Positions 2,471-64,000 of a DNA stretch of 64,000 bases are shown piece after piece. The translations under genes and the position numbers were made by a program. Position 1 is the stretch's first letter; every line of letters starts with the position of its first letter. This stretch comes from a virus, in the IMG/VR virus record IMGVR_UViG_3300045988_159115. One strand, written 5' to 3'. The notes under the pieces were generated by a model that saw nothing but the letters and a program-made list of their open reading frames with translations, had not been told where the DNA came from and searched no databases.

Positions 2471-5077
2471 TTAGCTTTTTTCGATAGGAATATAAGATGC
2501 GAGTTCTGCGTTAGAAGAAGTTCTGTTTCGAGTATCTACGATGTCAACAGGATATGCGTTAAACATGTCGTTGTGAGAGATAACGAATACCTGCTCAGCA
2601 TGAATCATATCAATTTGCATCTCCAAGACATGTAAAAACTTCTCACGATTGGATATATCGAGAGTGGCATCGATCTCATCAAGAAGCATGATATTATACT
2701 TCGAGATAGATTTGTAAGTGAGTGCAAATGAGAGTGCTAGAGAGATAAAGCTTCGCTCACCCTGAGAAGCATAAATCACATCTTTTACAGTGGTTCCTTT
2801 TGTACTATAAGGAATTCCAAATTCATCAGCCGTGATTTCAAAATCTTCCAGATGAAGATCTCCGTCATATACGACATCAAGTAGTTGATTCGCAATATCT
2901 TTGATGTCTTTTAAATATGCTTGGATGAAAATAAGAGGAATTCCTTCTCGACTAGAAAGAGCACGAGCAAGATATTCAAGATCCGTAAACTTGGAACTGA
3001 GTTCATCAAGATCTTTTTTATACCTCTTATAATTCTCGATACGGAACTCATTGTCTTGGTGAGTTTTACTCATCTTATTCTTACGGAACTGGAGATCATT
3101 GAGAACTGATGTTTTCTCACGAATCTGAAGAGATAACTGAGATGCAAGGGTAAGTTTTGATTTGAGATCATTAAATTCAGTCTCAACTTCATCCTCATGC
3201 TCCATTGCAACTACCATATCTTCATAATCAGATACGGAAGCTTCTTTTTCTGCAATCTCTCTATTGAGAGAATTGATCGTTTCTTTGACTTCATCAAGTT
3301 GTCCCATAAGAGTTGTACGAGAGTTGATGAGCTCTTCCAGTTTATTCTGGAAATACTCAATATTGCTATTTGCTTTCTTATATTGAGCAAGCATAGATTT
3401 CTGACGGTTGAGTTCTTCGAGATCAGCATCCTGAAGTTCATCATCTGTGATGAGTCCAAGCTCATGGAAGATAATATCCTTATCATAAATCCATTCCATA
3501 TTACAAATATGGGTAAGGACTGTACTCATCATGAACTGGTCTTTGATACACTCAGGCATCTTCTCAAAGATATCATGATAATCTCTCAGATATTTGAGGA
3601 CTGTCTGGATGTTATTATAGGCCATTTTTGTATAAGCCAAGAACGTCTCATCTTCAATGACCTTGTCTGGGGCTTGTGTTGCGTACTCATAGATTCTCTG
3701 ATAGAAGTCATAAACTCTGCATCCAGACGGATTCTTACAGTCAGGACCTAAGAGACCAATATCTTTGCTGATTTCAGCATAGACTTGCTCACAGAGAGAT
3801 TGCATTCGGTTCCGTTTAATTTTCTCTCTATTCTCTCTGGTATATTTCTCAATATCCGTTTTTGTGTGGAAGAAGGATACAGCTTTCTGAATTGGTCCTT
3901 TACCAAGCTCATATGTCGACAGCAGGATATCCATGCATTTATCAAGCATCTTGATAAGGTCTTCCATTTCTGCTTTAGAACATGGACGAACATATCCGGC
4001 GATTCCACTTTCTTTTGCTCTTCTCCGAATCGTTTCTCTAAGAAGCTCAATATTTGCTTCCATGTCTTTGACGTTTTGATCATCCTCAATACGAGCGATT
4101 TCACGTCTGATGGAATCAATTTCATTTGCGATAGAATCCAGTTGATTCAGAATTCCAGTTCGTGTAATGACGTTTGTATCAAGAGAAGATTTTGCTTTCA
4201 GAATAGCAATCTTAGCTTCTTCAATCATAGACTTCAGGGTGCTAATGCTAATCTTAATTTCAGATGCTCTTGCTAGTGCTTTCTGAATGTGCTTTAGTTC
4301 TTTTTCTTTCTCTTGAATCCGGTCTCTCATTGCTGGAATATCTCCACAGTCATTGAGTTGATACTGGAGAACGGAGAGTTCACTATTCACTTTCTCAATC
4401 TTTGCTGTGAGATCCTCAATTTGATGCTGCAGACTTTTTTGAGCCTTTTTGAGTTCTCCCAAATCATCCACTTGAAGTCGACGAATTAGGTCTGAAGTAT
4501 GATTGATTTGGATATTGACTTTATTCTTATCTGCCATAATTTTCTTATGGTAAGAAAGATAAATGTCAGCTTCACTGATAATCTTACCAGTGAAGTTTTT
4601 TCGTTCCTGTCTCTTCATATCAATGAAATTTGTGACATTGCTACCAAGACGAGTAAGCTTCATATAATCTTGCTCAAGTCCAAGTTCCTTTTCCACAATT
4701 TCTTTGAAAGAAGTGACATTCCCGTTTTCGTTCAATTCTACACCATTTTTCTGGATATAGCTTTTGATAATATGCTTATCACTATTTCTGGTATAGAAAT
4801 GCTGTATGACGTATAAATCGTCACAATCGGAGATATGGATTTCTTTATATCCATTTTCTCTTGGAACGATAATTGGGTTATCGCTGCGTACATCCATGTT
4901 GCCATTTGTAGGGAATGGATGTAAGCAACTTAAAATGCTAGTCTTACCAGACCCATTTGGTCCAGTAAGCAATACGACATTATTATTAGACTTACTGAAA
5001 TCAATCTCAATCGTTTCCGTATTGAATGCAGTAACGATATTGATGAAATTCGTAAGTTTTAGATACAAGATTTTCAT
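2471..5077 (-). CDS. SbcC/Rad50-family recombination/repair ATPase
   Basis: Walker A GPNGSGKTS, a long central coiled coil, signature-like SQGERSF, Walker B MLLDEIDATLD and H-loop VISHN. Confidence 0.85.
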   Translation of the reverse strand: MKILYLKLTNFINIVTAFNTETIEIDFSKSNNNVVLLTGPNGSGKTSILSCLHPFPTNGNMDVRSDNPIIVPRENGYKEIHISDCDDLYVIQHFYTRNSDKHIIKSYIQKNGVELNENGNVTSFKEIVEKELGLEQDYMKLTRLGSNVTNFIDMKRQERKNFTGKIISEADIYLSYHKKIMADKNKVNIQINHTSDLIRRLQVDDLGELKKAQKSLQHQIEDLTAKIEKVNSELSVLQYQLNDCGDIPAMRDRIQEKEKELKHIQKALARASEIKISISTLKSMIEEAKIAILKAKSSLDTNVITRTGILNQLDSIANEIDSIRREIARIEDDQNVKDMEANIELLRETIRRRAKESGIAGYVRPCSKAEMEDLIKMLDKCMDILLSTYELGKGPIQKAVSFFHTKTDIEKYTRENREKIKRNRMQSLCEQVYAEISKDIGLLGPDCKNPSGCRVYDFYQRIYEYATQAPDKVIEDETFLAYTKMAYNNIQTVLKYLRDYHDIFEKMPECIKDQFMMSTVLTHICNMEWIYDKDIIFHELGLITDDELQDADLEELNRQKSMLAQYKKANSNIEYFQNKLEELINSRTTLMGQLDEVKETINSLNREIAEKEASVSDYEDMVVAMEHEDEVETEFNDLKSKLTLASQLSLQIREKTSVLNDLQFRKNKMSKTHQDNEFRIENYKRYKKDLDELSSKFTDLEYLARALSSREGIPLIFIQAYLKDIKDIANQLLDVVYDGDLHLEDFEITADEFGIPYSTKGTTVKDVIYASQGERSFISLALSFALTYKSISKYNIMLLDEIDATLDISNREKFLHVLEMQIDMIHAEQVFVISHNDMFNAYPVDIVDTRNRTSSNAELASYIPIEKS

Positions 5078-5532: not shown

Positions 5533-6819
5533 TTATGACAGATGATAGATTTCCTTGATGAGATTATTGATATAATCCACATTAATCTGGATGATGATTT
5601 TGTACGTGTAGTACGTACTTTGATGATGAAACTTCAGAGTGAGGGTATTAAAGTCGAATGAGTAATCCTTATCAGGAGTCATCAGACGGCCCTGCTTCCG
5701 AACTTTCATCTTGAAGAAGTCCGTTGTCGGAATTCCTCGTTCAAAGTGGAAGTTGAGAACTTTCTTCAGACTATCATTGAAGAGAGTGCTAAGATCAACT
5801 TCATCATCCATCTGTTCCAGCCTACAAGACGGAGATGCATACAAAGTCCATCCAAGAGGAAGATTCACATCATCTTCTGTCAGTACATCTGTGAAAATCG
5901 GAACGATGGTATTTCCACTATCGTCACAAGTAACGATACTATTTTCTTTGATATCGTCACTAAAGATATAGTAGAAGCCTGTCGAATAGAATTCACAGCG
6001 CATACTGAAATTGATCTTATAGGAATCACCAACTTGGTTTACCTTATCGCCTTCGTCAACATTGAAGTTTGTGATAATCGTGTCGATATTGACTGGATAG
6101 TACCGATAAAATTCTTCATGTCCAGTTGCTCCTTCCAACTTGTAAGTGATAGGAGTAACGGATGTAGAATTCAGATGCTTCAAGAACTTTGCTGTACTTC
6201 CATCTTCATCTCGCATCGGAACTTTGATCAGTTCGGAATACTTTGCAAGAAGATCAGGCGGAATATAACTTTCAAGACATGTCTGGAGATTGAAAGGAAT
6301 CTCATATCTCACTGAGTTCTTGAAGTAGTTCGCCCAGTTGATTTGCTGAATCATCGTATTGAAGATCAAGATGACATCGAAATTCAATACGCTACGATTC
6401 ATTTGATACTTAATTGCAGTACGAGAATTCCGATCCCAAATGAAATCTTGTAAATTAGTACCGCCTCGCATCATATAGAGGTCACCCTGACGCTCAATGA
6501 GAGGAGTTCCACGAAGGAATCTACTGTCATCATCCCAGTCAATACGGGGACGGATAACAAACATGGGAGGCTGCTTCTTTAAGAACTCTTTCGGAGTACT
6601 TCTCATTTGAGCATGAGCGATCTTACTATTGACATGAATTGTCTTGAAGAAATCTTTCGGAAAAAGATTGATGAGCCAATTCTGAACGAATGCTGTCACG
6701 TTTCCATAGGTATGAGCAGCTGATGTTTGCGCTTGGATGTAATGCATCGGATGCCCATAGATAAGATCATGACGCTCGTCTTCTGTCAGCTCATAGTCGT
6801 GAAGTCGTTTTGTATCCAT
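5533..6819 (-). CDS. Hypothetical protein (428 aa), last gene of the RNAP-fragment operon
   Basis: GAGGTGA SD. Follows the beta-prime fragment gene after a 31-nt gap. No polymerase motif recognised. Strong terminator downstream. Confidence 0.7.
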   Translation of the reverse strand: MDTKRLHDYELTEDERHDLIYGHPMHYIQAQTSAAHTYGNVTAFVQNWLINLFPKDFFKTIHVNSKIAHAQMRSTPKEFLKKQPPMFVIRPRIDWDDDSRFLRGTPLIERQGDLYMMRGGTNLQDFIWDRNSRTAIKYQMNRSVLNFDVILIFNTMIQQINWANYFKNSVRYEIPFNLQTCLESYIPPDLLAKYSELIKVPMRDEDGSTAKFLKHLNSTSVTPITYKLEGATGHEEFYRYYPVNIDTIITNFNVDEGDKVNQVGDSYKINFSMRCEFYSTGFYYIFSDDIKENSIVTCDDSGNTIVPIFTDVLTEDDVNLPLGWTLYASPSCRLEQMDDEVDLSTLFNDSLKKVLNFHFERGIPTTDFFKMKVRKQGRLMTPDKDYSFDFNTLTLKFHHQSTYYTYKIIIQINVDYINNLIKEIYHLS

Positions 6820-52990: not shown

Positions 52991-53704
52991 ATGCCGATTC
53001 TTACCAAATCACAAGAAGCAGGTTTCATGGATTTCTGTGATAAAATGCGGAATCCGGAAGCAATGGATCAAGTTACATATCATGAAATCGTTTATCCTTT
53101 TAACATGAATATGTGTATCCAGATGTTCCGTGACAATAATCCATTCTTTAATATCTATCCAAGCTATTCGTTTGGCGAAGATACGATTTGTGCGTATCTG
53201 GCATTTGCCGCTTGCACGGATTCTGAATTTGATCTGTGCATTATGGCAAATACTGATAAAGACTACAATCGAATTCTCAATAAGGTATATTACTTCGTAA
53301 AGAAGTCTCGGTTCTCGCTGATCACAAAGCTTCTTGCATGTTCTCGTCTTGCTAAGAAGTTTTATATTGGGAATGCACGATATGTGTATATTGCCCAGTA
53401 TGAGAGAACCTTTGATCCCGACGACAACTGTTTTGTTGGATGGGTTCATCCGAGGGTAACTGGCGGTACGATTGATGAGAATCGTCCTCATGCATATGGA
53501 ACGCATGTCATCAAGAGCAGAATGCATGATATGAGAACTCATACCATTATTTCTGGTAAAGATGCGTATGATGTTCTTAAGACTCAGATTGGTAGCTATC
53601 TCATGTACTATAACGTGATTGATGCTGATCTGGATTCTTGTAAGGAAGATACTCACAAAACCGCTGGAGAATATTTTAAGAACAGGGAGAAAAATAATGA
53701 GTAA
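52991..53704 (+). CDS. Hypothetical protein (237 aa) translationally coupled to the ThyA-like gene
   Basis: AAAGGAGGA SD. Its 3' end overlaps the ThyA-like start by 8 nt. Confidence 0.65.
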   Translation: MPILTKSQEAGFMDFCDKMRNPEAMDQVTYHEIVYPFNMNMCIQMFRDNNPFFNIYPSYSFGEDTICAYLAFAACTDSEFDLCIMANTDKDYNRILNKVYYFVKKSRFSLITKLLACSRLAKKFYIGNARYVYIAQYERTFDPDDNCFVGWVHPRVTGGTIDENRPHAYGTHVIKSRMHDMRTHTIISGKDAYDVLKTQIGSYLMYYNVIDADLDSCKEDTHKTAGEYFKNREKNNE

Positions 53705-54626
53705 AGCAGATGTTATTTTCAAGGACAATGTAGAGCAGATCCTTTGCATGGGAAATTATGAAGATCATTCTCTTCGTTGGTATCCGACTCGAGCAATGTG
53801 GGCGGATACGAAACTTACTGCTTGCACTGCAAAAGCATTCGGTATCGTGAATGAGTATGATCTTCGGGAAGAGTTCCCTGCAATCACTTTCCGAAAGACT
53901 GGTCTGAAGTCTTGCATGGATGAGATTCTTTGGATCTATCAGAAGAAGAGCAATAACATCCATGATCTGAAATCTCATATCTGGGATTCTTGGGCAGATG
54001 CTTCTGGTTCCATTGGTAAGGCATATGGCTATCAGATTGGTCAGAAGTATAAGCACCATAAAGCCCATATGGATATCAACGGATGCTATCCGGATGGAAC
54101 TGTTTTTGCAAAGAATGGCAATCCTTATGTGATGCTGGATCAGATGGATGCTGTGCTGTATGATCTTCAGCACGATCCTTGGTCCCGTCGTATCATGACA
54201 AATACGTACTGCTTCGAGGACCTTTCTGAGATGGGTCTGTATCCTTGTGCATATTCTACTACGTGGAATGTGACCAAGGAAGACGGTTATGAGAAGCCGG
54301 TTCTGAATCTGCTTTTGAATCAGAGAAGCAATGACTATATGGTTGCAAACAACTGGAATACTGCACAGTACGCAATCCTCTTAATGATGGTTGCACAGGT
54401 ATGTGACATGGTTCCTGGTCGTTTGACTCATGTCATTGCAGATGCCCACATCTATGATCGTCATCGTGAGATGATTGAGAGTATGATTCGTCGTCCGATG
54501 TATCCTGCTCCGAAGGTTAGTCTGGATCCTTCCATTAAAGATTTCTACAAGTTCACTACAGATAGCCTGATTGTGGAAAATTATCAGGCTGGTGAGCAAA
54601 TCAAAAATATCCCTGTAGCTGTATAA
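53697..54626 (+). CDS. thyA: Thymidylate synthase family enzyme (ThyA or dUMP hydroxymethylase)
   Basis: FPAITFRKTGLKSCMDEILWIYQKKSN..IWDSWA, SRRIMT, YPCAYS (catalytic Cys), NQRSNDYMVANNWNTAQYA (Asn as in dUMP-specific enzymes), ADAHIYDRH. Confidence 0.8.
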   Translation: MSKADVIFKDNVEQILCMGNYEDHSLRWYPTRAMWADTKLTACTAKAFGIVNEYDLREEFPAITFRKTGLKSCMDEILWIYQKKSNNIHDLKSHIWDSWADASGSIGKAYGYQIGQKYKHHKAHMDINGCYPDGTVFAKNGNPYVMLDQMDAVLYDLQHDPWSRRIMTNTYCFEDLSEMGLYPCAYSTTWNVTKEDGYEKPVLNLLLNQRSNDYMVANNWNTAQYAILLMMVAQVCDMVPGRLTHVIADAHIYDRHREMIESMIRRPMYPAPKVSLDPSIKDFYKFTTDSLIVENYQAGEQIKNIPVAV

Positions 54627-58036: not shown

Positions 58037-59371
58037 ATGGATTATGTATCTATGAAGATGTCAATCTATGAAAACTATGCAAATGGTAAGCTGACACAGG
58101 AAAACGCTCGTCAGCTGATTGGCGTCTTGAATAGTAACTACGGCAACACCCTCGTACAAGAGATGGTGGACGCTGAGAATGAGTTTATGATGAACAGCGT
58201 CCACGCCGCATATGAAAGTTCTGGCGTAGACGCTCTTTATGAAGCAAGTGAAACATTTGGCCAGAAGGTTGCTAAGATCTGGGAAAATTTCAAGAAGTGG
58301 ATCAAAGGTATCATTGATGCCATTCTTGGTCGTAAGAAGGAAGTTCCTGATAATTCTAAGGTGACTGTGAAGAAGGGCCTTCCGAAAGCAATGGATGATC
58401 TTCTTACACAGGTAAAGAAGCTTAAGAGCGCAAAGGGTACTGTTGCAATTGGCGCAGCAGTTGCCGGTGTTATTGGAGCGACAGCTGTTGTTAAGAAGCT
58501 GAAAGGCAAGCCTTCTAAAGGCGACGCTACTGAAGAGATTAATGCAGCAGCGTTAGCTAATAAAGCAGAAGACGTTGCTAAAAATGCAGCAGACCCGCCT
58601 AAAGTTGAAACTCCGCCTGCTGCTCCTCAAGGCCAATCTTCGGAACAAAAAAAAACAACCGATCCGAAGTCTGGAGAAGATCAGGTAACGCCTTCTAAGA
58701 TCATTAGTTCTGTTACAGGCGCAGCAAATGTTGCTGACGACGTTAGTAAACAGGCCACCGCATCTTCTCCTGAGCATACTGAAAGCTCAACTGATCTTAA
58801 GAAGCTTTTTGTTAAATTTAATAAAAATGGTGGTCTTTACGATCTAGATGATGATGCAAAATATCTTGGGAGGCTGAGCTATAGTGCTCTAAAGACATAT
58901 GCTGACTATGATCCTGAAAACAAGATATATTGTAATAAAACCAGAAAGACCGCCCAAAACATTATTGATGGCTACATACGTAATTGCGGTGGTGAACCTT
59001 ATACAAACCCTATAAACGATTATCGCAAAGAGTATCATGACATTCTTTATCAAGAATATCCGGATACTCCTGAAGGTGACGAAAAGCTTCGTTCAGATCT
59101 CGTTGGCCGTAATGGAAAAATAATGTCAATTATGAAAGATTTGGAGGCTAGGTATAATAAAGTAAATTCTCAGGTTAGTGAGCGTAATCTGGAGAACTAC
59201 AAGCGCCTCTACATACCAGACTGGTCCACACAAGCTGCTACTGCTACTGCTGGAGTTTATGTTAACTGCCGAGATCTTGTATTCCATATTAGTGGATTCT
59301 GGTATGCTCTTGAAGGTAGATGCCACAAAACACCCTACAATGCGAATGGAATTTATTTTATAAAAAAATAA
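58037..59371 (+). CDS. Hypothetical protein (444 aa), paralog A
   Basis: AAAGGAG SD. N-terminal SIYENYANGKLTQENARQLI and QKVAKIWENFKKWIKG match the next gene. Confidence 0.65.
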   Translation: MDYVSMKMSIYENYANGKLTQENARQLIGVLNSNYGNTLVQEMVDAENEFMMNSVHAAYESSGVDALYEASETFGQKVAKIWENFKKWIKGIIDAILGRKKEVPDNSKVTVKKGLPKAMDDLLTQVKKLKSAKGTVAIGAAVAGVIGATAVVKKLKGKPSKGDATEEINAAALANKAEDVAKNAADPPKVETPPAAPQGQSSEQKKTTDPKSGEDQVTPSKIISSVTGAANVADDVSKQATASSPEHTESSTDLKKLFVKFNKNGGLYDLDDDAKYLGRLSYSALKTYADYDPENKIYCNKTRKTAQNIIDGYIRNCGGEPYTNPINDYRKEYHDILYQEYPDTPEGDEKLRSDLVGRNGKIMSIMKDLEARYNKVNSQVSERNLENYKRLYIPDWSTQAATATAGVYVNCRDLVFHISGFWYALEGRCHKTPYNANGIYFIKK

Positions 59372-59394: not shown

Positions 59395-60639
59395 ATGAAT
59401 ACTGATCTCAGGTTATTCATTTATGAGCAGTATGGAAATGGTCAAATTGATCGTGATACTGCTCGTGCACTTATTTCCAGAATTTCTGGACCCGAATATT
59501 ACGAGCGAGCATATCTGAATGCAATGGCTGAAATTGATACAGCCGAATCTGCATTCATGGAATCTGCTCTTGACTATGCGAACGGATATGCTGACCAGTT
59601 TACCTTTGAGGCTCAAGCGGAAACTCTTAGTCAGAAGATCGGCAATGCTTGGAAAACCTTTAAGAAGTGGGTTTCTGAGATGTGGGATAAGCTTCTTAAA
59701 TTCCTTGGTATTCGTAAGACTGAGGACGATAAAATCGGAATGGAAAAGAAGCATTTTGATCTTCTTGGTACAATTGATAAGGGACTCAAGAGTGCTTTGT
59801 CTCATATCACAAAGAACGATAAAGACTTTAAGAAAGTCAGTGATGATAAGAAAGGCGAGATTGAGTCCACTCTTGATGATAATCCTGGCTTCATTGAACT
59901 TCTCAAGATCGCCGCTCTCATTGGCGCCGTCAAGTTTACTTCTTATAAAAAGAAGAAAAAGAACTTAAGAGATATCGGCCACGATATTGTGTGGGTCACA
60001 CGTGATAAGATCTACAGCACGTGCGATTCGATCAAGGATACTGTAGATAAACTTCTTGTCACAGCAGATAGCTGGGATGGTAAGTTTGCATCAAAGCTGT
60101 CTACAGTTCTTCATAAAATTCTTGGTTGGATTTCAAAGCTTCCCTCGGCATTTACTATCCCTGAGGAAGTCGTTAATGGCGACGAATTTAAGGGTATTAC
60201 CGACGCAAAGAAGTTTGCTACTCTTATCAATGCATCCAATAAGAGTGATAATATCAGTAGTCTTGATTTTGCGAATCATTATAGCATTAATACAAGTATG
60301 AACAGTATCATTGATATGGTCATTGCTTCTATCAAACGGGATACAACCTTTAAGGAAGCAGACAAGATGGTGGAGCTCACTCGCAGATATGCGCGACTTG
60401 ATATTTTCTCAAGAGGATTTGAAGCAAGTTCTATGGATCGTGATGTCAATGAGCACATCAATGGTAAGGGAATTCCGGATGAGTCTGCTATCAAACAAGC
60501 GATGTATTTGCTTGATTGTAATTTCTGTAAGAAGCGCTACAATCAGGTGAAACATCTGTATCAGCGTGTTGCTGAGAATGGTGGTAAGTTTGCAGAAGAT
60601 CCTACTAAGAACAAAGACGCAGACGAATCAAAGTCTTAA
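59395..60639 (+). CDS. Hypothetical protein (414 aa), paralog B
   Basis: GAAAGGA SD. Contains FIYEQYGNGQIDRDTARALI and QKIGNAWKTFKKWVSE. Confidence 0.65.
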   Translation: MNTDLRLFIYEQYGNGQIDRDTARALISRISGPEYYERAYLNAMAEIDTAESAFMESALDYANGYADQFTFEAQAETLSQKIGNAWKTFKKWVSEMWDKLLKFLGIRKTEDDKIGMEKKHFDLLGTIDKGLKSALSHITKNDKDFKKVSDDKKGEIESTLDDNPGFIELLKIAALIGAVKFTSYKKKKKNLRDIGHDIVWVTRDKIYSTCDSIKDTVDKLLVTADSWDGKFASKLSTVLHKILGWISKLPSAFTIPEEVVNGDEFKGITDAKKFATLINASNKSDNISSLDFANHYSINTSMNSIIDMVIASIKRDTTFKEADKMVELTRRYARLDIFSRGFEASSMDRDVNEHINGKGIPDESAIKQAMYLLDCNFCKKRYNQVKHLYQRVAENGGKFAEDPTKNKDADESKS

Positions 60640-60700: not shown

Positions 60701-62038
60701 TTATTCTTTTGCGAAAGCTTCCTTTTCAAGAGCGAAAAGGTTGTCAGCTTCTTCTTTGCCGACGAATTCTACCGTTTCATCATACGGAAGATAGATTTTC
60801 TTTGCAGGCATATCATGGAGCTTCAAATGCCGCTGGTTGTAGTAATAGCAAATTGCTAAAACCCGTCCCTTATGAGCATTACAGATATTGGTTGATCTCT
60901 TGTTTGGAGTGCCATACATCTCATAGTTATCACCAGAGCACCATGCGCACCCACCGGCAACAGGACAAGTTAAACACTTTTCAGGTGATTGACTTGTCTT
61001 AGTGATTGCCTCAAGTTCATTCTTCAAAGCAATCGTTCTTTCGGTATTATAGATACCATTAAAGCAATCACCAATACACATCTTCTCTGCAAGTTTATTT
61101 CCTACAGAGATAGGTGCATATCGAAGACAAGGATAGCATTTACCATCTGGTGCAAACATGAGCATTTTACCTGTTCCACCACACCAGTTATTATCGTTAT
61201 CGGACGGCTCACCGGTATCTTCACCATCAAGAATTGATACGAAAGTATCATCTCCGATATCAATGAGAATATCAGCAAGCTTCTTTAACTCGAAATAAAT
61301 ATCCCGAGCATCCGAAATCGTGTATACCGGCTCAAACGCATAGTTACACATGATATCGACACAACCAAGATCATGCATGAACTTTACGCTCTGTGAAAGA
61401 TACTTCGTTGAACCGGGAGTGAACGTCATCTTTGTTCCAGTGACACCATAACGATCACGGATATTGATAAAAGCTTTCAGTGCTTTTTCAAATGAACCAT
61501 TTCCGTACTGGTCAATACGGTATTTATCATGAAGTTCCTGAATACCATCAATCGAAACTGACGGAGAGATAATCTCATGATACTTCTCCATAAGATGCTG
61601 GGTCTCTGGAGTAAACCAGAGCTGGCCATTTGTTGCGAACGATACACGGCTGAATTCAATCAGTTCAGTATATCCACGTCGTGCTGCGGTGATCATGAAA
61701 TAGTCAATGATCTCTTCCATTAACTTTGCTTCCAAAAGAGGCTCGCCTCCAATGAAATCAAAAATAATGGCTTTTGTATCATGGCTGATCACCATATTCG
61801 GATCATTCTTCTCATACATGTCAAGCACAGCATCGACGCATTTCTTTGCTGTATAAATGCTCATAGAACCATCACACTTATTGTGCTCATAGCAATAAGA
61901 GCATCTTAAATTACATTGGTTGGTGACTTGAAATGTCACCGATCTTGCGATAGGTCCTTTTGCAGATTTTCTATATCTGCTATAAAGTCGAGAGATAACG
62001 TCGTGATAACCGACGTCATGCCGTCTTACTCCTGCCAT
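60701..62038 (-). CDS. Radical SAM enzyme with C-terminal SPASM-type domain (anSME / peptide-maturase family)
   Basis: CNLRCSYCY (CxxxCxxC), GGEPLL, then CGGTGKMLMFAPDGKCYPC and CLTCPVAGGCAWCSG...NICNAH auxiliary-cluster cysteines. GAGGTGA SD. Start overlaps the upstream gene by 13 nt. Confidence 0.8.
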   Translation of the reverse strand: MAGVRRHDVGYHDVISRLYSRYRKSAKGPIARSVTFQVTNQCNLRCSYCYEHNKCDGSMSIYTAKKCVDAVLDMYEKNDPNMVISHDTKAIIFDFIGGEPLLEAKLMEEIIDYFMITAARRGYTELIEFSRVSFATNGQLWFTPETQHLMEKYHEIISPSVSIDGIQELHDKYRIDQYGNGSFEKALKAFINIRDRYGVTGTKMTFTPGSTKYLSQSVKFMHDLGCVDIMCNYAFEPVYTISDARDIYFELKKLADILIDIGDDTFVSILDGEDTGEPSDNDNNWCGGTGKMLMFAPDGKCYPCLRYAPISVGNKLAEKMCIGDCFNGIYNTERTIALKNELEAITKTSQSPEKCLTCPVAGGCAWCSGDNYEMYGTPNKRSTNICNAHKGRVLAICYYYNQRHLKLHDMPAKKIYLPYDETVEFVGKEEADNLFALEKEAFAKE

Positions 62039-62328
62039 GTGAATGTCACCTCATCAGTGATAAAATCAAAGTTTGCCATCATATCATGCGGACGATTGGG
62101 GAAGTACTTCCCAATTACCTCACTCTGAACGAGATTAAAATCAATATCTGCTTTATAGAAGTCATTTTTGACAGCTTCTAAGACTTCTTTCGCATCTGAA
62201 TTATTTGCACCATTCAGCTGACGAGTGAGAATATTGATTAAATTCTCCATGGCTTTTCGAGTATAAAAACGGCTCTCCACAGCTGTCATTTCTTCAGCTG
62301 GGATCTCGACCATCATCTTCTTTTCCAT
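62026..62328 (-). CDS. Hypothetical 100-aa protein in the radical-SAM operon
   Basis: ATG with a GAGGA SD. Overlaps the upstream gene by 35 nt and the rSAM start by 13 nt. Confidence 0.6.
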   Translation of the reverse strand: MEKKMMVEIPAEEMTAVESRFYTRKAMENLINILTRQLNGANNSDAKEVLEAVKNDFYKADIDFNLVQSEVIGKYFPNRPHDMMANFDFITDEVTFTWQE

Positions 62329-62944
62329 AGCAAATCCTCAAACTTATGCCGTCGTAGTGAATCGTTTTCAGCTCTTCGAACTGATCGCGTAATTCAATAC
62401 TACGCTCAAGGCATTTTACAAAATATGTGAAATTGAAATAGTCGTCTTCACTCTCTGTATTTAACGTGAACTGAAGACGAACGACAACAGCAGAGCAAAT
62501 GATGTATTGAGCCCATACGATTTCTCGAATCGTAGGTTCGATCTCCAAGAATTTTTCAATGGGAGTATCATCATTCACGATGAGTTTTGAATAGTGGACA
62601 TCGAAGCAGAAAGAATAGATTGCGAGAGCATAACTATACATCTGCTTTTCGATATCAGTCAGATCAATTGTATCAAGCACCTCATTAATGACGTCAATTG
62701 CGTGAGTACAAATCTGAAGATGCTTTGAAAAATCTTCGCAAAGTCCTTTATTCTTGAAAATCGTAAAGTAACAAAGGACGTTGAAAAATCTCGGAGTTTT
62801 CTGATCAGGAGGGCAAAAGCGATCAAGCTCTTCCTTAAATTCTTCTTTTGTGAATTCTTGATCTGTCACAAGAGCTAAAAGGCATTTGTGCACAGCATAG
62901 GTTAAATTATATTTGTCCATTCGAGGAATAATTCGTTCTTCCAT
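62294..62944 (-). CDS. Hypothetical 216-aa helical protein in the radical-SAM operon
   Basis: GGAGGTG SD. Begins 19 nt after the stop of the Cys-rich gene. Confidence 0.65.
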   Translation of the reverse strand: MEERIIPRMDKYNLTYAVHKCLLALVTDQEFTKEEFKEELDRFCPPDQKTPRFFNVLCYFTIFKNKGLCEDFSKHLQICTHAIDVINEVLDTIDLTDIEKQMYSYALAIYSFCFDVHYSKLIVNDDTPIEKFLEIEPTIREIVWAQYIICSAVVVRLQFTLNTESEDDYFNFTYFVKCLERSIELRDQFEELKTIHYDGISLRICYGKEDDGRDPS

Positions 62945-62963
62945 GTGCTAACACCTCCACTCC

Positions 62964-63653
62964 TTAAAACTTAATGTTGCCACAGAAGTTATCGCAGTCA
63001 TTACTGCAAGCAGCTTCATCATTGCAATGAACGGAACAGGTGCCAGAGCAGTCACTGTCCCAGCATTGACTGGAGCAAGTGGTACCGCAACTGTCACAAC
63101 CATTACAGTCACCATCGCAACCGAAGCAGCCACCAGAACAGCTGTTTGAGCACACACCACCGCACGAACCAGAGCACGAACCAGAGCAAGTATTCTTACA
63201 TGTATTATTGCATGTACCAGAGCAGCTTCCGCTACACGTGTTTGTACAGTTACCTGTACACGTGCCTTTGCAGTTCGTATAGCATCCAGAGCTACAGAGA
63301 CCGCTACAAGACGACTTGCAGCCGGTATCTGAACTTGTAACACCTTTACTTGAAAGCGTTGCTACTTTACTTGCAGCGGTTGTTAAAGTACTTGCAGTTA
63401 CTTTCGCGCCATTACCAGGAGTAATCCTGCTACCAGTAACAGCATCGAGAGGCTGCGTAATCTTTATGATGTGCTCCTGAAGAATCTTGCCACCAGTAGC
63501 AGGATTCGTAGAGTAGTTATAATTTGATCCATTGTAACCGCTCATACTACCAGTACTTCTAGAATTACTCCGGCGATTGATTTCATTCTTCACCAGATTT
63601 TTCAAAGAGGTGAAGTCCGACGCCGTAATTTTATTTCCTTTACCTGCGCTCAT
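62964..63653 (-). CDS. Cys-ladder protein: Cys-free N-terminal domain (111 aa) plus 29-Cys C-terminal region
   Basis: AAAGGGGTGA SD. Residues 112-225 hold 29 Cys. The first 17 are spaced exactly C-x3-C, with S/G/T/N between them. The protein ends in GNIKF. Confidence 0.75.
   Translation of the reverse strand: MSAGKGNKITASDFTSLKNLVKNEINRRSNSRSTGSMSGYNGSNYNYSTNPATGGKILQEHIIKITQPLDAVTGSRITPGNGAKVTASTLTTAASKVATLSSKGVTSSDTGCKSSCSGLCSSGCYTNCKGTCTGNCTNTCSGSCSGTCNNTCKNTCSGSCSGSCGGVCSNSCSGGCFGCDGDCNGCDSCGTTCSSQCWDSDCSGTCSVHCNDEAACSNDCDNFCGNIKF
62967..63320 (-). repeat. Coding cysteine ladder (29 Cys, mostly C-x3-C)
   Basis: Counted from the translation. At the DNA level only one 12-nt tandem duplication (CSGSCSGSC) is obvious. 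Confidence 0.8.
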
Positions 63654-63657
63654 AATA

Positions 63658-64000
63658 TCACCCCTTTACCCGAATCTTTACACGACGAATATCTGTCCGA
63701 TTGTCGTCTTCCACAACATATCCAACAACGCGCTTATGCGGAATACTCTCATCATCGGTAGCAATACCAACACCGGGAATATCAGACACAATGATGGTAT
63801 CACCACGATGCACAGGACCAGTTACTTTACACATAACACGTCCTGCAAGGGATACCGGAATGAAATTGATAAGGTTCTTTTTCACATAATCTTCCCCATC
63901 ACCTGCTTTATCACCACCGATAAGCATGGCATACTCATCGGAATGAACACCAGCAACAATTTTACTTGTTGCAGTTGCTTTGATGTAAGATTCATGATCA
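63658..64000 (-). CDS. C-terminal part of a fibre/spike-like protein (5' end outside window), possible peptidase-G2/IMC-like domain
   Basis: Frame is open to the window edge. IPVSLAGRVMCKVTGPVHRGDTIIVSDIPGVGIATDD...VGYVVED resembles the VGLLGK..VRDDGTC..G.....GIAT...GYRV pattern as I recall it. Confidence 0.35.
   Translation of the reverse strand, partial: DHESYIKATATSKIVAGVHSDEYAMLIGGDKAGDGEDYVKKNLINFIPVSLAGRVMCKVTGPVHRGDTIIVSDIPGVGIATDDESIPHKRVVGYVVEDDNRTDIRRVKIRVKG

Follow-up and report, generated by a model that had tools for sequence, protein, structure and literature searches.

A cysteine-ladder gene next to a tail-fiber gene of a gut jumbo phage

We analyzed a 64,000-nucleotide stretch of viral DNA (IMG/VR record IMGVR_UViG_3300045988_159115; hereafter the window) and focused on a gene whose product carries a strict ladder of cysteines and is the predicted target of a radical S-adenosylmethionine (rSAM) enzyme encoded in the same operon. 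The window forms the final 64 kb of a human-gut metagenome contig of 259,889 bp, and near-identical viral contigs of 255-259 kb are present in IMG/VR. Because the contig codes for a tail sheath, a large terminase, a major head protein, a helicase and an SbcC-like nuclease, its source is, judged by gene content, a jumbo myovirus. Downstream of a tail-fiber gene, the operon comprises packed and overlapping genes in the order target, p216, p100 and rSAM enzyme (Table 1).

Table 1. Genes and protein regions of the cassette, listed in the direction of transcription.
Feature	Position in the window	Strand	Remarks
Upstream gene, 3' end (last 113 aa of the product)	63658..64000	-	Open reading frame runs off the end of the window and the contig
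CXXX-repeat protein gene (predicted rSAM target)	62964..63653	-	229 aa, ATG start, stop codon included
Target N-terminal domain, aa 1-111	63321..63653	-	Cys-free, three predicted helices (AlphaFold2, conservation)
Strict C-x3 ladder, aa 112-176, 17 Cys	63126..63320	-	Cys positions; head near-invariant in the family
Looser Cys-rich tail, aa 177-229, 12 Cys	62967..63125	-	Spacings 3-6; ends CGNIKF
p216, 216-aa all-alpha accessory protein	62294..62944	-	AlphaFold2; family-less
p100, 100-aa small partner	62026..62328	-	Distant likeness to TIGR04116, aligned end to end
Radical SAM/SPASM maturase, 445 aa	60701..62038	-	Best match TIGR04115

The target contains 29 cysteines, all in its C-terminal half, at residues 112, 116 and every fourth position up to 176, then at 179, 183, 186, 189, 193, 197, 202, 206, 210, 216, 220 and 224. 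The gaps between them are 16 times 4, followed by 3, 4, 3, 3, 4, 4, 5, 4, 4, 6, 4 and 4. A first-pass annotation of the window had described 17 consecutive Cys four residues apart and a looser spacing thereafter, and the Cys positions bear out both; its span of 62967-63320 is bounded exactly by the first Cys codon and the last sense codon. It had found almost only S, G, T, N and K between the cysteines, and this holds for the strict run apart from a single L, Y and V. There is no Asp or Glu in this run (aa 112-176), and the residue at i+4 from a Cys is always the next Cys. The tail is richer in acidic residues and ends, as annotated, in DNFCGNIKF. When the C-terminal half was shuffled 100,000 times, the longest C-x3 run obtained was 8, reached once, compared to 17 in the real protein.

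The periodicity is not a by-product of repetitive DNA. Tandem Repeats Finder detects only three short local arrays of 12-nt units (1.9-2.8 copies), and a single exact 12-nt duplication is present (TGCTCTGGTTCG x2), in agreement with the annotation, which had seen no simple tandem repeat and one such duplication. Cys codon usage is mixed, with 18 TGC and 11 TGT. Compared to two orthologues, L007 and L010, 11 of the 29 Cys codons show synonymous changes and none a non-synonymous change; the 89 non-Cys codons of the core show 27-30 synonymous and 12-15 non-synonymous changes. A third orthologue, L008, carries an in-register insertion of 8 aa, exactly two units. Because Cys codons show no non-synonymous change despite 11 synonymous ones, the Cys register is selected at the protein level. 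The periodicity is thus kept by purifying selection on the protein and not by a recent DNA repeat, as the annotation had proposed.

The repeat DNA is also open in further frames, namely 62948-63343 on the minus strand (a 131-aa open reading frame) and 63079-63282 and 63146-63340 on the plus strand. In public protein sets, some family members appear in frameshifted or wrong-frame form, their tails being rich in V, L and R (P0140, P0176 and P0192). The Cys-repeat region is mishandled by gene callers and assemblies.

The locus is a divergent CXXX-repeat radical SAM system

Four NCBIfam models define the CXXX-repeat system: TIGR04114 for the target, TIGR04115 for the rSAM maturase, TIGR04116 for an associated protein and TIGR04117 for Syntrophobotulus-type targets. 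By sequence comparison the locus is a divergent member of this system (TIGR04114-04117, Pfam PF27846), a catalogued kind that the first-pass annotation had missed. Like the catalogued loci, it combines a Cys-x3-repeat target, a partner of ~90-100 aa and an rSAM/SPASM enzyme. It differs in that its target has a folded 110-aa N-terminal domain in place of a short leader, and in that its cassette includes an additional 216-aa helical gene and is coupled to a tail-fiber gene.

The maturase matches TIGR04115 (rSAM_Cxxx_rpt) over the entire model (1-359 of 359) with E=1.7e-87 and 294 bits, compared to a curated cut-off of 350. The same model is matched by all 22 of 22 diverse cassette maturases (best E=1.3e-189), SCIFF maturases being also among the matches. 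Judged by these alignments, the window enzyme is a divergent branch of the TIGR04115 family and not a strict equivalog. The next families are PapB (NF047865, E=4e-42, 144.5 bits with a cut-off of 340), CcpM and QhpD-type enzymes (E=7e-23), and weaker matches include anaerobic sulfatase maturase and cyclophane-forming enzymes. In Pfam, Radical_SAM is matched above the cut-off and SPASM weakly. Across 83 full-length homologues of the maturase, the CX3CX2C cysteines (C42, C46 and C49) and the SPASM cysteines (286, 304, 355, 358, 364, 367 and 386) are 100% conserved.

The target itself matches TIGR04117 weakly (E=0.013, 15.6 bits, cut-off 50) and does not match TIGR04114 at E<=0.01. Within a set of 41 family members, 21 match TIGR04117 and 15 match TIGR04114 ('tSAM_targ_Cxxx'), and homologues at 78-89% identity to the target carry the precomputed PF27846 tag 'tSAM_targ_Cxxx_rpt'. 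The small partner p100 is weakly similar to TIGR04116, the 'CXXX repeat peptide modification system protein' (E=3.7e-4, 20.6 bits, cut-off 50); only 2 of 28 p100 homologues match this model at E<=0.01, and a p100 profile found no match among PDB sequences. Three loci encode p100 as an N-terminal fusion to the rSAM enzyme (L064, 4329-6005; L068; L084, 4326-5999), in the order fiber, fusion, target. In one protein, P0275, p100 is instead fused to the C-terminus of a target (profile E 5e-9). These fusions, together with its size and place in the cassette, fit p100 being the TIGR04116-type partner.

For p216, AlphaFold2 (AF2) predicts an all-helical protein with a mean predicted local distance difference test score (pLDDT) of 72, for which a PDB fold search returned only insignificant, ARM/14-3-3-like matches. 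No Pfam, PHROG or NCBIfam family was matched, and p216 has 19 database relatives even by profile search. A profile match of p216 to PDB sequences (E=0.026) was judged to be at chance level.

Full-text searches found no paper on the chemistry or function of the CXXX-repeat family, which, as far as we found, appears to have been defined by comparative genomics only. We likewise found no earlier description of a systematic coupling to phage tail fibers or of the folded N-terminal domain, both of which appear from these comparisons to be new.

A conserved N-terminal domain precedes a repeat found across gut phages

Structure prediction of the 229-aa protein alone, suggested in the first-pass annotation, separates two parts. 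Residues 1-110 are predicted by AF2 at a pLDDT of ~90, with helices at 11-27, 59-73 and 87-102. Residues 111-229 of the unmodified target remain below 50, and the Cys region is accordingly predicted to be disordered before modification. The annotation had regarded the N-terminal part as a normal folded or fiber-associated domain rather than the leader of a ribosomally made, post-translationally modified peptide (RiPP). The fold and the adjacent fiber gene speak for the first half of this claim; the second half does not follow, the fold being compatible with a leader role. A PDB fold search with the target model gave no match (best E=2.9), a search of BFVD returned uncharacterized homologues only, and the target has no functional match in Pfam or PHROG. 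Conserved residues of the domain are K18, E24, R27, R28, G35, S36, Y40, Y45, Y47, P51, E60, H61, K64, P68 and A71.

Variants of the domain occur, none with a Pfam assignment. P0228 and P0170 have N-terminal extensions of 135-175 aa, P0260 and P0266 have insertions of 100-130 aa between the helices, and P0202 joins the first half of the domain to a Cys-free, fiber-like C-terminus. The added parts of P0228, P0266, P0260 and P0170 may resemble carbohydrate-binding jelly-rolls.

We found 524 homologues of the target in a search of 5.8 billion proteins. A profile of the N-terminal domain retrieved 522 cluster representatives among 1.84 billion proteins, the domain being almost always N-terminal. 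Of the 142 representatives listed, 104 have Cys repeats after the domain, and nearly all others are contig-end fragments or frameshifted calls. Among 40 diverse members, which contain 17-33 Cys each, 84% of the inter-Cys gaps are 4 and 13% are 3, and the repeat unit has the consensus C-[ST]-G-[SGT]. Cysteine makes up 24.5% of the family core, and D accounts for 4-7% at each x position. The repeat opens with a near-invariant head, TG-C-xSS-C-SGL-C-xxG-C, present in the window as C-KSS-C-SGL-C-SSG-C-Y, whose invariant positions include C112, C116, G118, C120 and C124. The register is conserved down to ~35% identity. The annotation had named loss of the periodicity in homologues as a sign of drift; the homologues retain it, and drift is not supported.

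The cassette is found in gut phages and in Faecalibacterium prophages, with a locus GC content of 31-61%. As hosts, bacterial genomes identify Faecalibacterium (a complete F. prausnitzii chromosome is among them) and a further member of the Bacillota, represented by a metagenome-assembled genome. A bacterial-type relative is encoded at L002 (MT837480.1, 2222-3957): a 174-aa CXXX-repeat precursor with a twin-arginine-like signal (SRREFFK) stands directly before a 402-aa maturase, in the absence of p100 and of the phage N-terminal domain. The repeat module can thus follow quite different N-terminal parts.

The cassette is coupled to tail-fiber genes

Using profiles built from the window proteins, we compared loci from viral or metagenomic sequences (87) and from bacterial genomes (7); presence counts refer to the 71 loci with enough flank. 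The rSAM gene adjoins the target in all 71 of them. The p100 gene is present in 69 of 71. In 50 of 71 loci, the C-terminal domain of the window's fiber protein is encoded ahead of the target: 49 have both this domain and p216, 1 has the fiber domain alone, and 21 have neither. In 37 of the 50 loci the target ATG lies 3-6 nt past the fiber stop codon, the distance in the window being 4 nt. Where the domain is missing, another fiber-like gene ending in '...LKYYNGSAWV...' stands directly upstream, and at several such loci the cassette is followed by holin- and endolysin-like genes. In Pfam, PHROG and NCBIfam comparisons, no match to a protease, exporter or immunity family was obtained for any of the five cassette genes, and the 87 loci show no further conserved gene within the cassette.

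The 113-aa fiber domain is recognizable by the motif '..YIKAT..VAGVHSDEYAMLIGG..IPVSLAGRV..GD.I..S..PG.G..', which is common to the tail fibers of related loci. Proteins bearing it have varied N-terminal parts that match tail-fiber families (phrog_7037, E=7e-37), some with weak matches to the Pfam Phage_tail_fib N-terminal or tail-collar N-terminal families. The domain is weakly similar to the Peptidase_G2/IMC intramolecular chaperone (best E=1e-4, below the cut-off). Matches to polyubiquitin in a PDB sequence profile search were discarded as spurious sums (i-Evalue ~100 per domain). We also rejected stop-codon readthrough as a means of fusing fiber and target: the two are in the same frame in ~13 of 63 loci, below the one-third expected by chance.

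One relative, the 148-kb contig L009, has a cassette ~90% identical to that of the window and contains two divergent copies of fiber plus cassette. An inverted repeat of 490 bp, common to both copies, covers the fiber C-terminal domain (3078-3565 vs 5569-6053, 86% identity). The second target of this contig (2273-3139, minus strand) is much longer, with many more Cys and more gaps of 3; repeat copy number thus varies widely within one genome. Five independent assemblies of this phage group (L005, L006, L007, L008 and L010; 76 kb and 255-262 kb) break off within the fiber gene, 260-380 nt upstream of the target, and an inverted repeat of the L009 type is probably the cause. Because these assemblies break in the fiber gene, where L009 has its inverted repeat, a second cassette likely lies just beyond the window end in the window's genome.

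A proposed thioether-stapled, fiber-associated protein

On balance we consider it somewhat probable that the target is the substrate of a CXXX-repeat maturase, becomes multiply thioether-bridged and is kept as a fiber-associated component of this gut jumbo phage. In this model, the target would be made in the cytoplasm of an anaerobic host, where its N-terminal domain and the repeat head TG-C-xSS-C-SGL-C would dock it to the maturase via p100, as the fusions and the conservation pattern suggest. The rSAM/SPASM enzyme would then move through the C-[ST]-G-[SGT] part, which is unstructured, and link many of the 29 thiols to neighboring residues by intramolecular thioether bridges of the sactionine or ranthionine type. 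Small rings would thereby form a covalent ladder that neither redox state nor proteases affect. In the least certain step, the product would be kept whole with its N-terminal domain, as a tip, cap or adhesin-like partner of the tail fiber.

The chemistry is probably thioether formation, by analogy with the nearest characterized enzyme families. The maturases PapB, CcpM, QhpD and SCIFF are, partly as their names imply, thioether-forming, and thioether formation is favored because these are the next-best families of the cassette maturases. For the ladder, the first-pass annotation had offered a metal-thiolate cluster, a disulfide or thioether ladder, and a solenoid-like rung. The thioether option gains from the rSAM/SPASM operon and the TIGR04115 match; we found no support for metal, disulfide or solenoid.

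In the substrate of PapB, Cys residues at a regular short period are turned into a row of small thioether rings. The locus presumably resembles the PapB/freyrasin system (a ranthipeptide with six C-x3-D rings) in making such a row: PapB is the second-best family of the window enzyme, and both substrates have periodic Cys. The window enzyme nevertheless fails the PapB equivalog score, at 144 bits far below 340. Its substrate does not follow the C-x3-D/E acceptor rule, i+4 being the next Cys and not Asp, and is 229 aa long with 29 Cys and no genes for leader processing. QhpD, also an rSAM/SPASM enzyme, installs several Cys thioether bridges in QhpC, the gamma subunit of quinohemoprotein amine dehydrogenase, where they are kept in the assembly. 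This is the closest precedent known to us for rSAM thioethers in a protein that stays in an assembly, although the sequence relation is distant and QhpC is an enzyme subunit with three bridges and no repeat. The SCIFF/CteB, CcpM and 'Cys-every-fifth' (CefB) systems, among the weaker matches, likewise pair Cys-rich precursors with SPASM maturases, but differ from the window target in Cys spacing and precursor architecture. We know of none from a phage tail module.

An rSAM enzyme of SPN3US-type jumbo phages was rejected as the same system, at 27% identity and with no Cys-rich neighbor. In Salmonella phage SPN3US itself (L095, NC_027402.1, 135500-146000), paired adjacent rSAM genes lie in the neighborhood of genes for a DUF4376 protein and for a protein annotated as tail assembly chaperone.

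That the product is structural and fiber-linked, rather than a released peptide, we put forward tentatively, at somewhat short of an even chance. A whole, fiber-associated product is suggested because the target starts 3-6 nt past the fiber stop codon in most loci and because no protease or exporter is recognized in the cassette. Association with the fiber is further suggested because the cassette travels with one fiber C-terminal domain while fiber N-termini vary, because p216 tracks the fiber type yet sits between target and p100, because loci without that domain carry another fiber-like gene upstream, and because the cassette is duplicated with a second fiber gene in L009. A structural role is suggested because the cassette is present in jumbo phages and some N-terminal domains carry extra domains. 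In position the target resembles the Tfa and gpG/U chaperones and the T2/S16-type gp38 adhesins, which are encoded directly downstream of a fiber gene with probable translational coupling; shared with these are also a Gly/Ser-rich, repetitive and fast-evolving C-terminal region and co-inheritance with the distal domain of the fiber. It differs from them in that Pfam, PHROG and PDB comparisons revealed no likeness in sequence or fold, and we know of no such protein with an rSAM requirement or a Cys ladder.

Several observations weigh against this model. Curated cut-offs are undercut by the maturase (294 vs 350 bits) and far more so by p100 and the target, and no experiment on any family member was found in the literature. 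The strict run offers neither Asp nor Glu, the acceptors of PapB. Cargo ('moron') genes, too, classically occupy the slot that follows a tail fiber and, in small phages, precedes holin and endolysin. The N-terminal domain and p216 match no known fiber, chaperone or adhesin fold, and we found no cultured phage with virion proteomics that carries the target gene. The upstream protein of L009, the closest relative, has no tail-fiber family match and shares the C-terminal domain only, and the bacterial-type relative L002 has an ordinary short leader.

Alternative explanations

An alternative that we judge unlikely, yet the most serious, is a phage-encoded RiPP: the N-terminal domain would be a long leader removed by a host or unlinked protease, and lysis or lysogens would release the poly-thioether peptide, which would act as a bacteriocin, a signal or an anti-competitor factor. 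The machinery is of RiPP type, with a precursor, a small partner and an rSAM/SPASM enzyme, and in L002 a short precursor places a twin-arginine-like leader before the same repeats. Adjacency to the fiber would then reflect the usual site of cargo insertion; small phages do carry the cassette between tail fiber and holin/endolysin, and the family occurs in prophages. The Cys region, predicted by AF2 to be disordered, resembles a core peptide, and the folded N-terminal domain is compatible with leader-like recognition. A classical released RiPP differs from the window precursor, which has 229 aa and a folded domain conserved over 110 aa, sometimes with extra domains. The five cassette genes have no match to a protease, transporter or immunity family, and no other conserved gene accompanies them at the 87 loci. 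Starts within 3-6 nt of the fiber stop suggest co-translation, and this alternative also sits poorly with the linkage to one fiber C-terminal domain while fiber N-termini are variable, with the duplication alongside a second fiber in L009 and with the presence of the cassette in ~260-kb jumbo phages.

We regard as rather improbable that the enzyme performs another rSAM chemistry, such as conversion of Cys to formylglycine in the manner of anaerobic sulfatase maturases (anSME), epimerization, methylation or C-C cross-linking, or that few Cys are modified and the others stay free. SPASM enzymes catalyze many reactions, anaerobic sulfatase maturase and cyclophane enzymes are among the weaker matches of the maturase, and the strict run has no acceptor of the PapB type (Asp/Glu). 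The strongest characterized relatives, however, are all thioether formers, and the Cys register is the sole strictly selected feature of the substrate.

Very improbable is an unmodified Cys array, in the form of a metallothionein-like protein, an Fe-S or metal-thiolate cluster or a disulfide ladder, with the rSAM enzyme acting elsewhere. A core of 24.5% Cys with small polar residues in between would suit such an array, but the rSAM gene stands beside the target at every one of the 71 loci, and fusions join p100 to the enzyme or to the target. Unlike a metallothionein, the target has no Pfam metallothionein or metal-binding match, and its rSAM gene is always linked. The identified hosts are strict anaerobes, whose reducing cytoplasm, like the gut lumen, disfavors disulfides.

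A drifting, functionless low-complexity tail, which the simple composition and low AF2 confidence might evoke, is refuted by the absence of non-synonymous changes next to synonymous ones in 11 of 29 Cys codons, the insertion of whole units in the close relative L008, a register kept to ~35% identity and an N-terminal domain profile that reaches more than 500 cluster representatives.

Significance of a phage-borne CXXX-repeat system

The CXXX-repeat rSAM family is abundant in gut phages and Faecalibacterium prophages and is tightly coupled to tail-fiber genes. This setting provides a testable hypothesis, a thioether-stapled fiber-associated protein, and cultivable F. prausnitzii lysogens exist, strain 2 (CP186691; locus L089) being one that carries the cassette. 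It is a tentative possibility that phages of strict anaerobes have recruited RiPP-type machinery in which an rSAM enzyme staples a fiber-associated protein into up to several dozen thioether rings. If so, the ladder, proof against redox change and proteases, would take the place of disulfides in a gut that is reducing and rich in proteases. A structural product would represent a new viral way of stabilizing extracellular parts under anoxic, reducing conditions and, for peptide engineering, a natural scaffold in which many small thioether rings follow one another. As far as we know, no other phage structural protein is cross-linked by an rSAM enzyme, and the CXXX-repeat system would thereby gain its first assigned biological role. 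If instead the peptide is released, phages of the human gut would encode a large class of natural products that is still untapped.

Neighboring genes

Two tandem plus-strand genes, 58037-59371 and 59395-60639 (444 and 414 aa), converge on the cassette and have no family match. Their N-termini appear alike by eye (..IYENYANGKLTQENARQLIGVL.. and ..IYEQYGNGQIDRDTARALISRI..), which suggests at the sequence level that they are paralogues. The pair is retained, with variations, in the relatives L006 and L007. A thymidylate synthase gene (53619-54626, plus strand; Pfam PF00303), an ordinary nucleotide-metabolism gene of jumbo phages, lies ~8 kb from the cassette.

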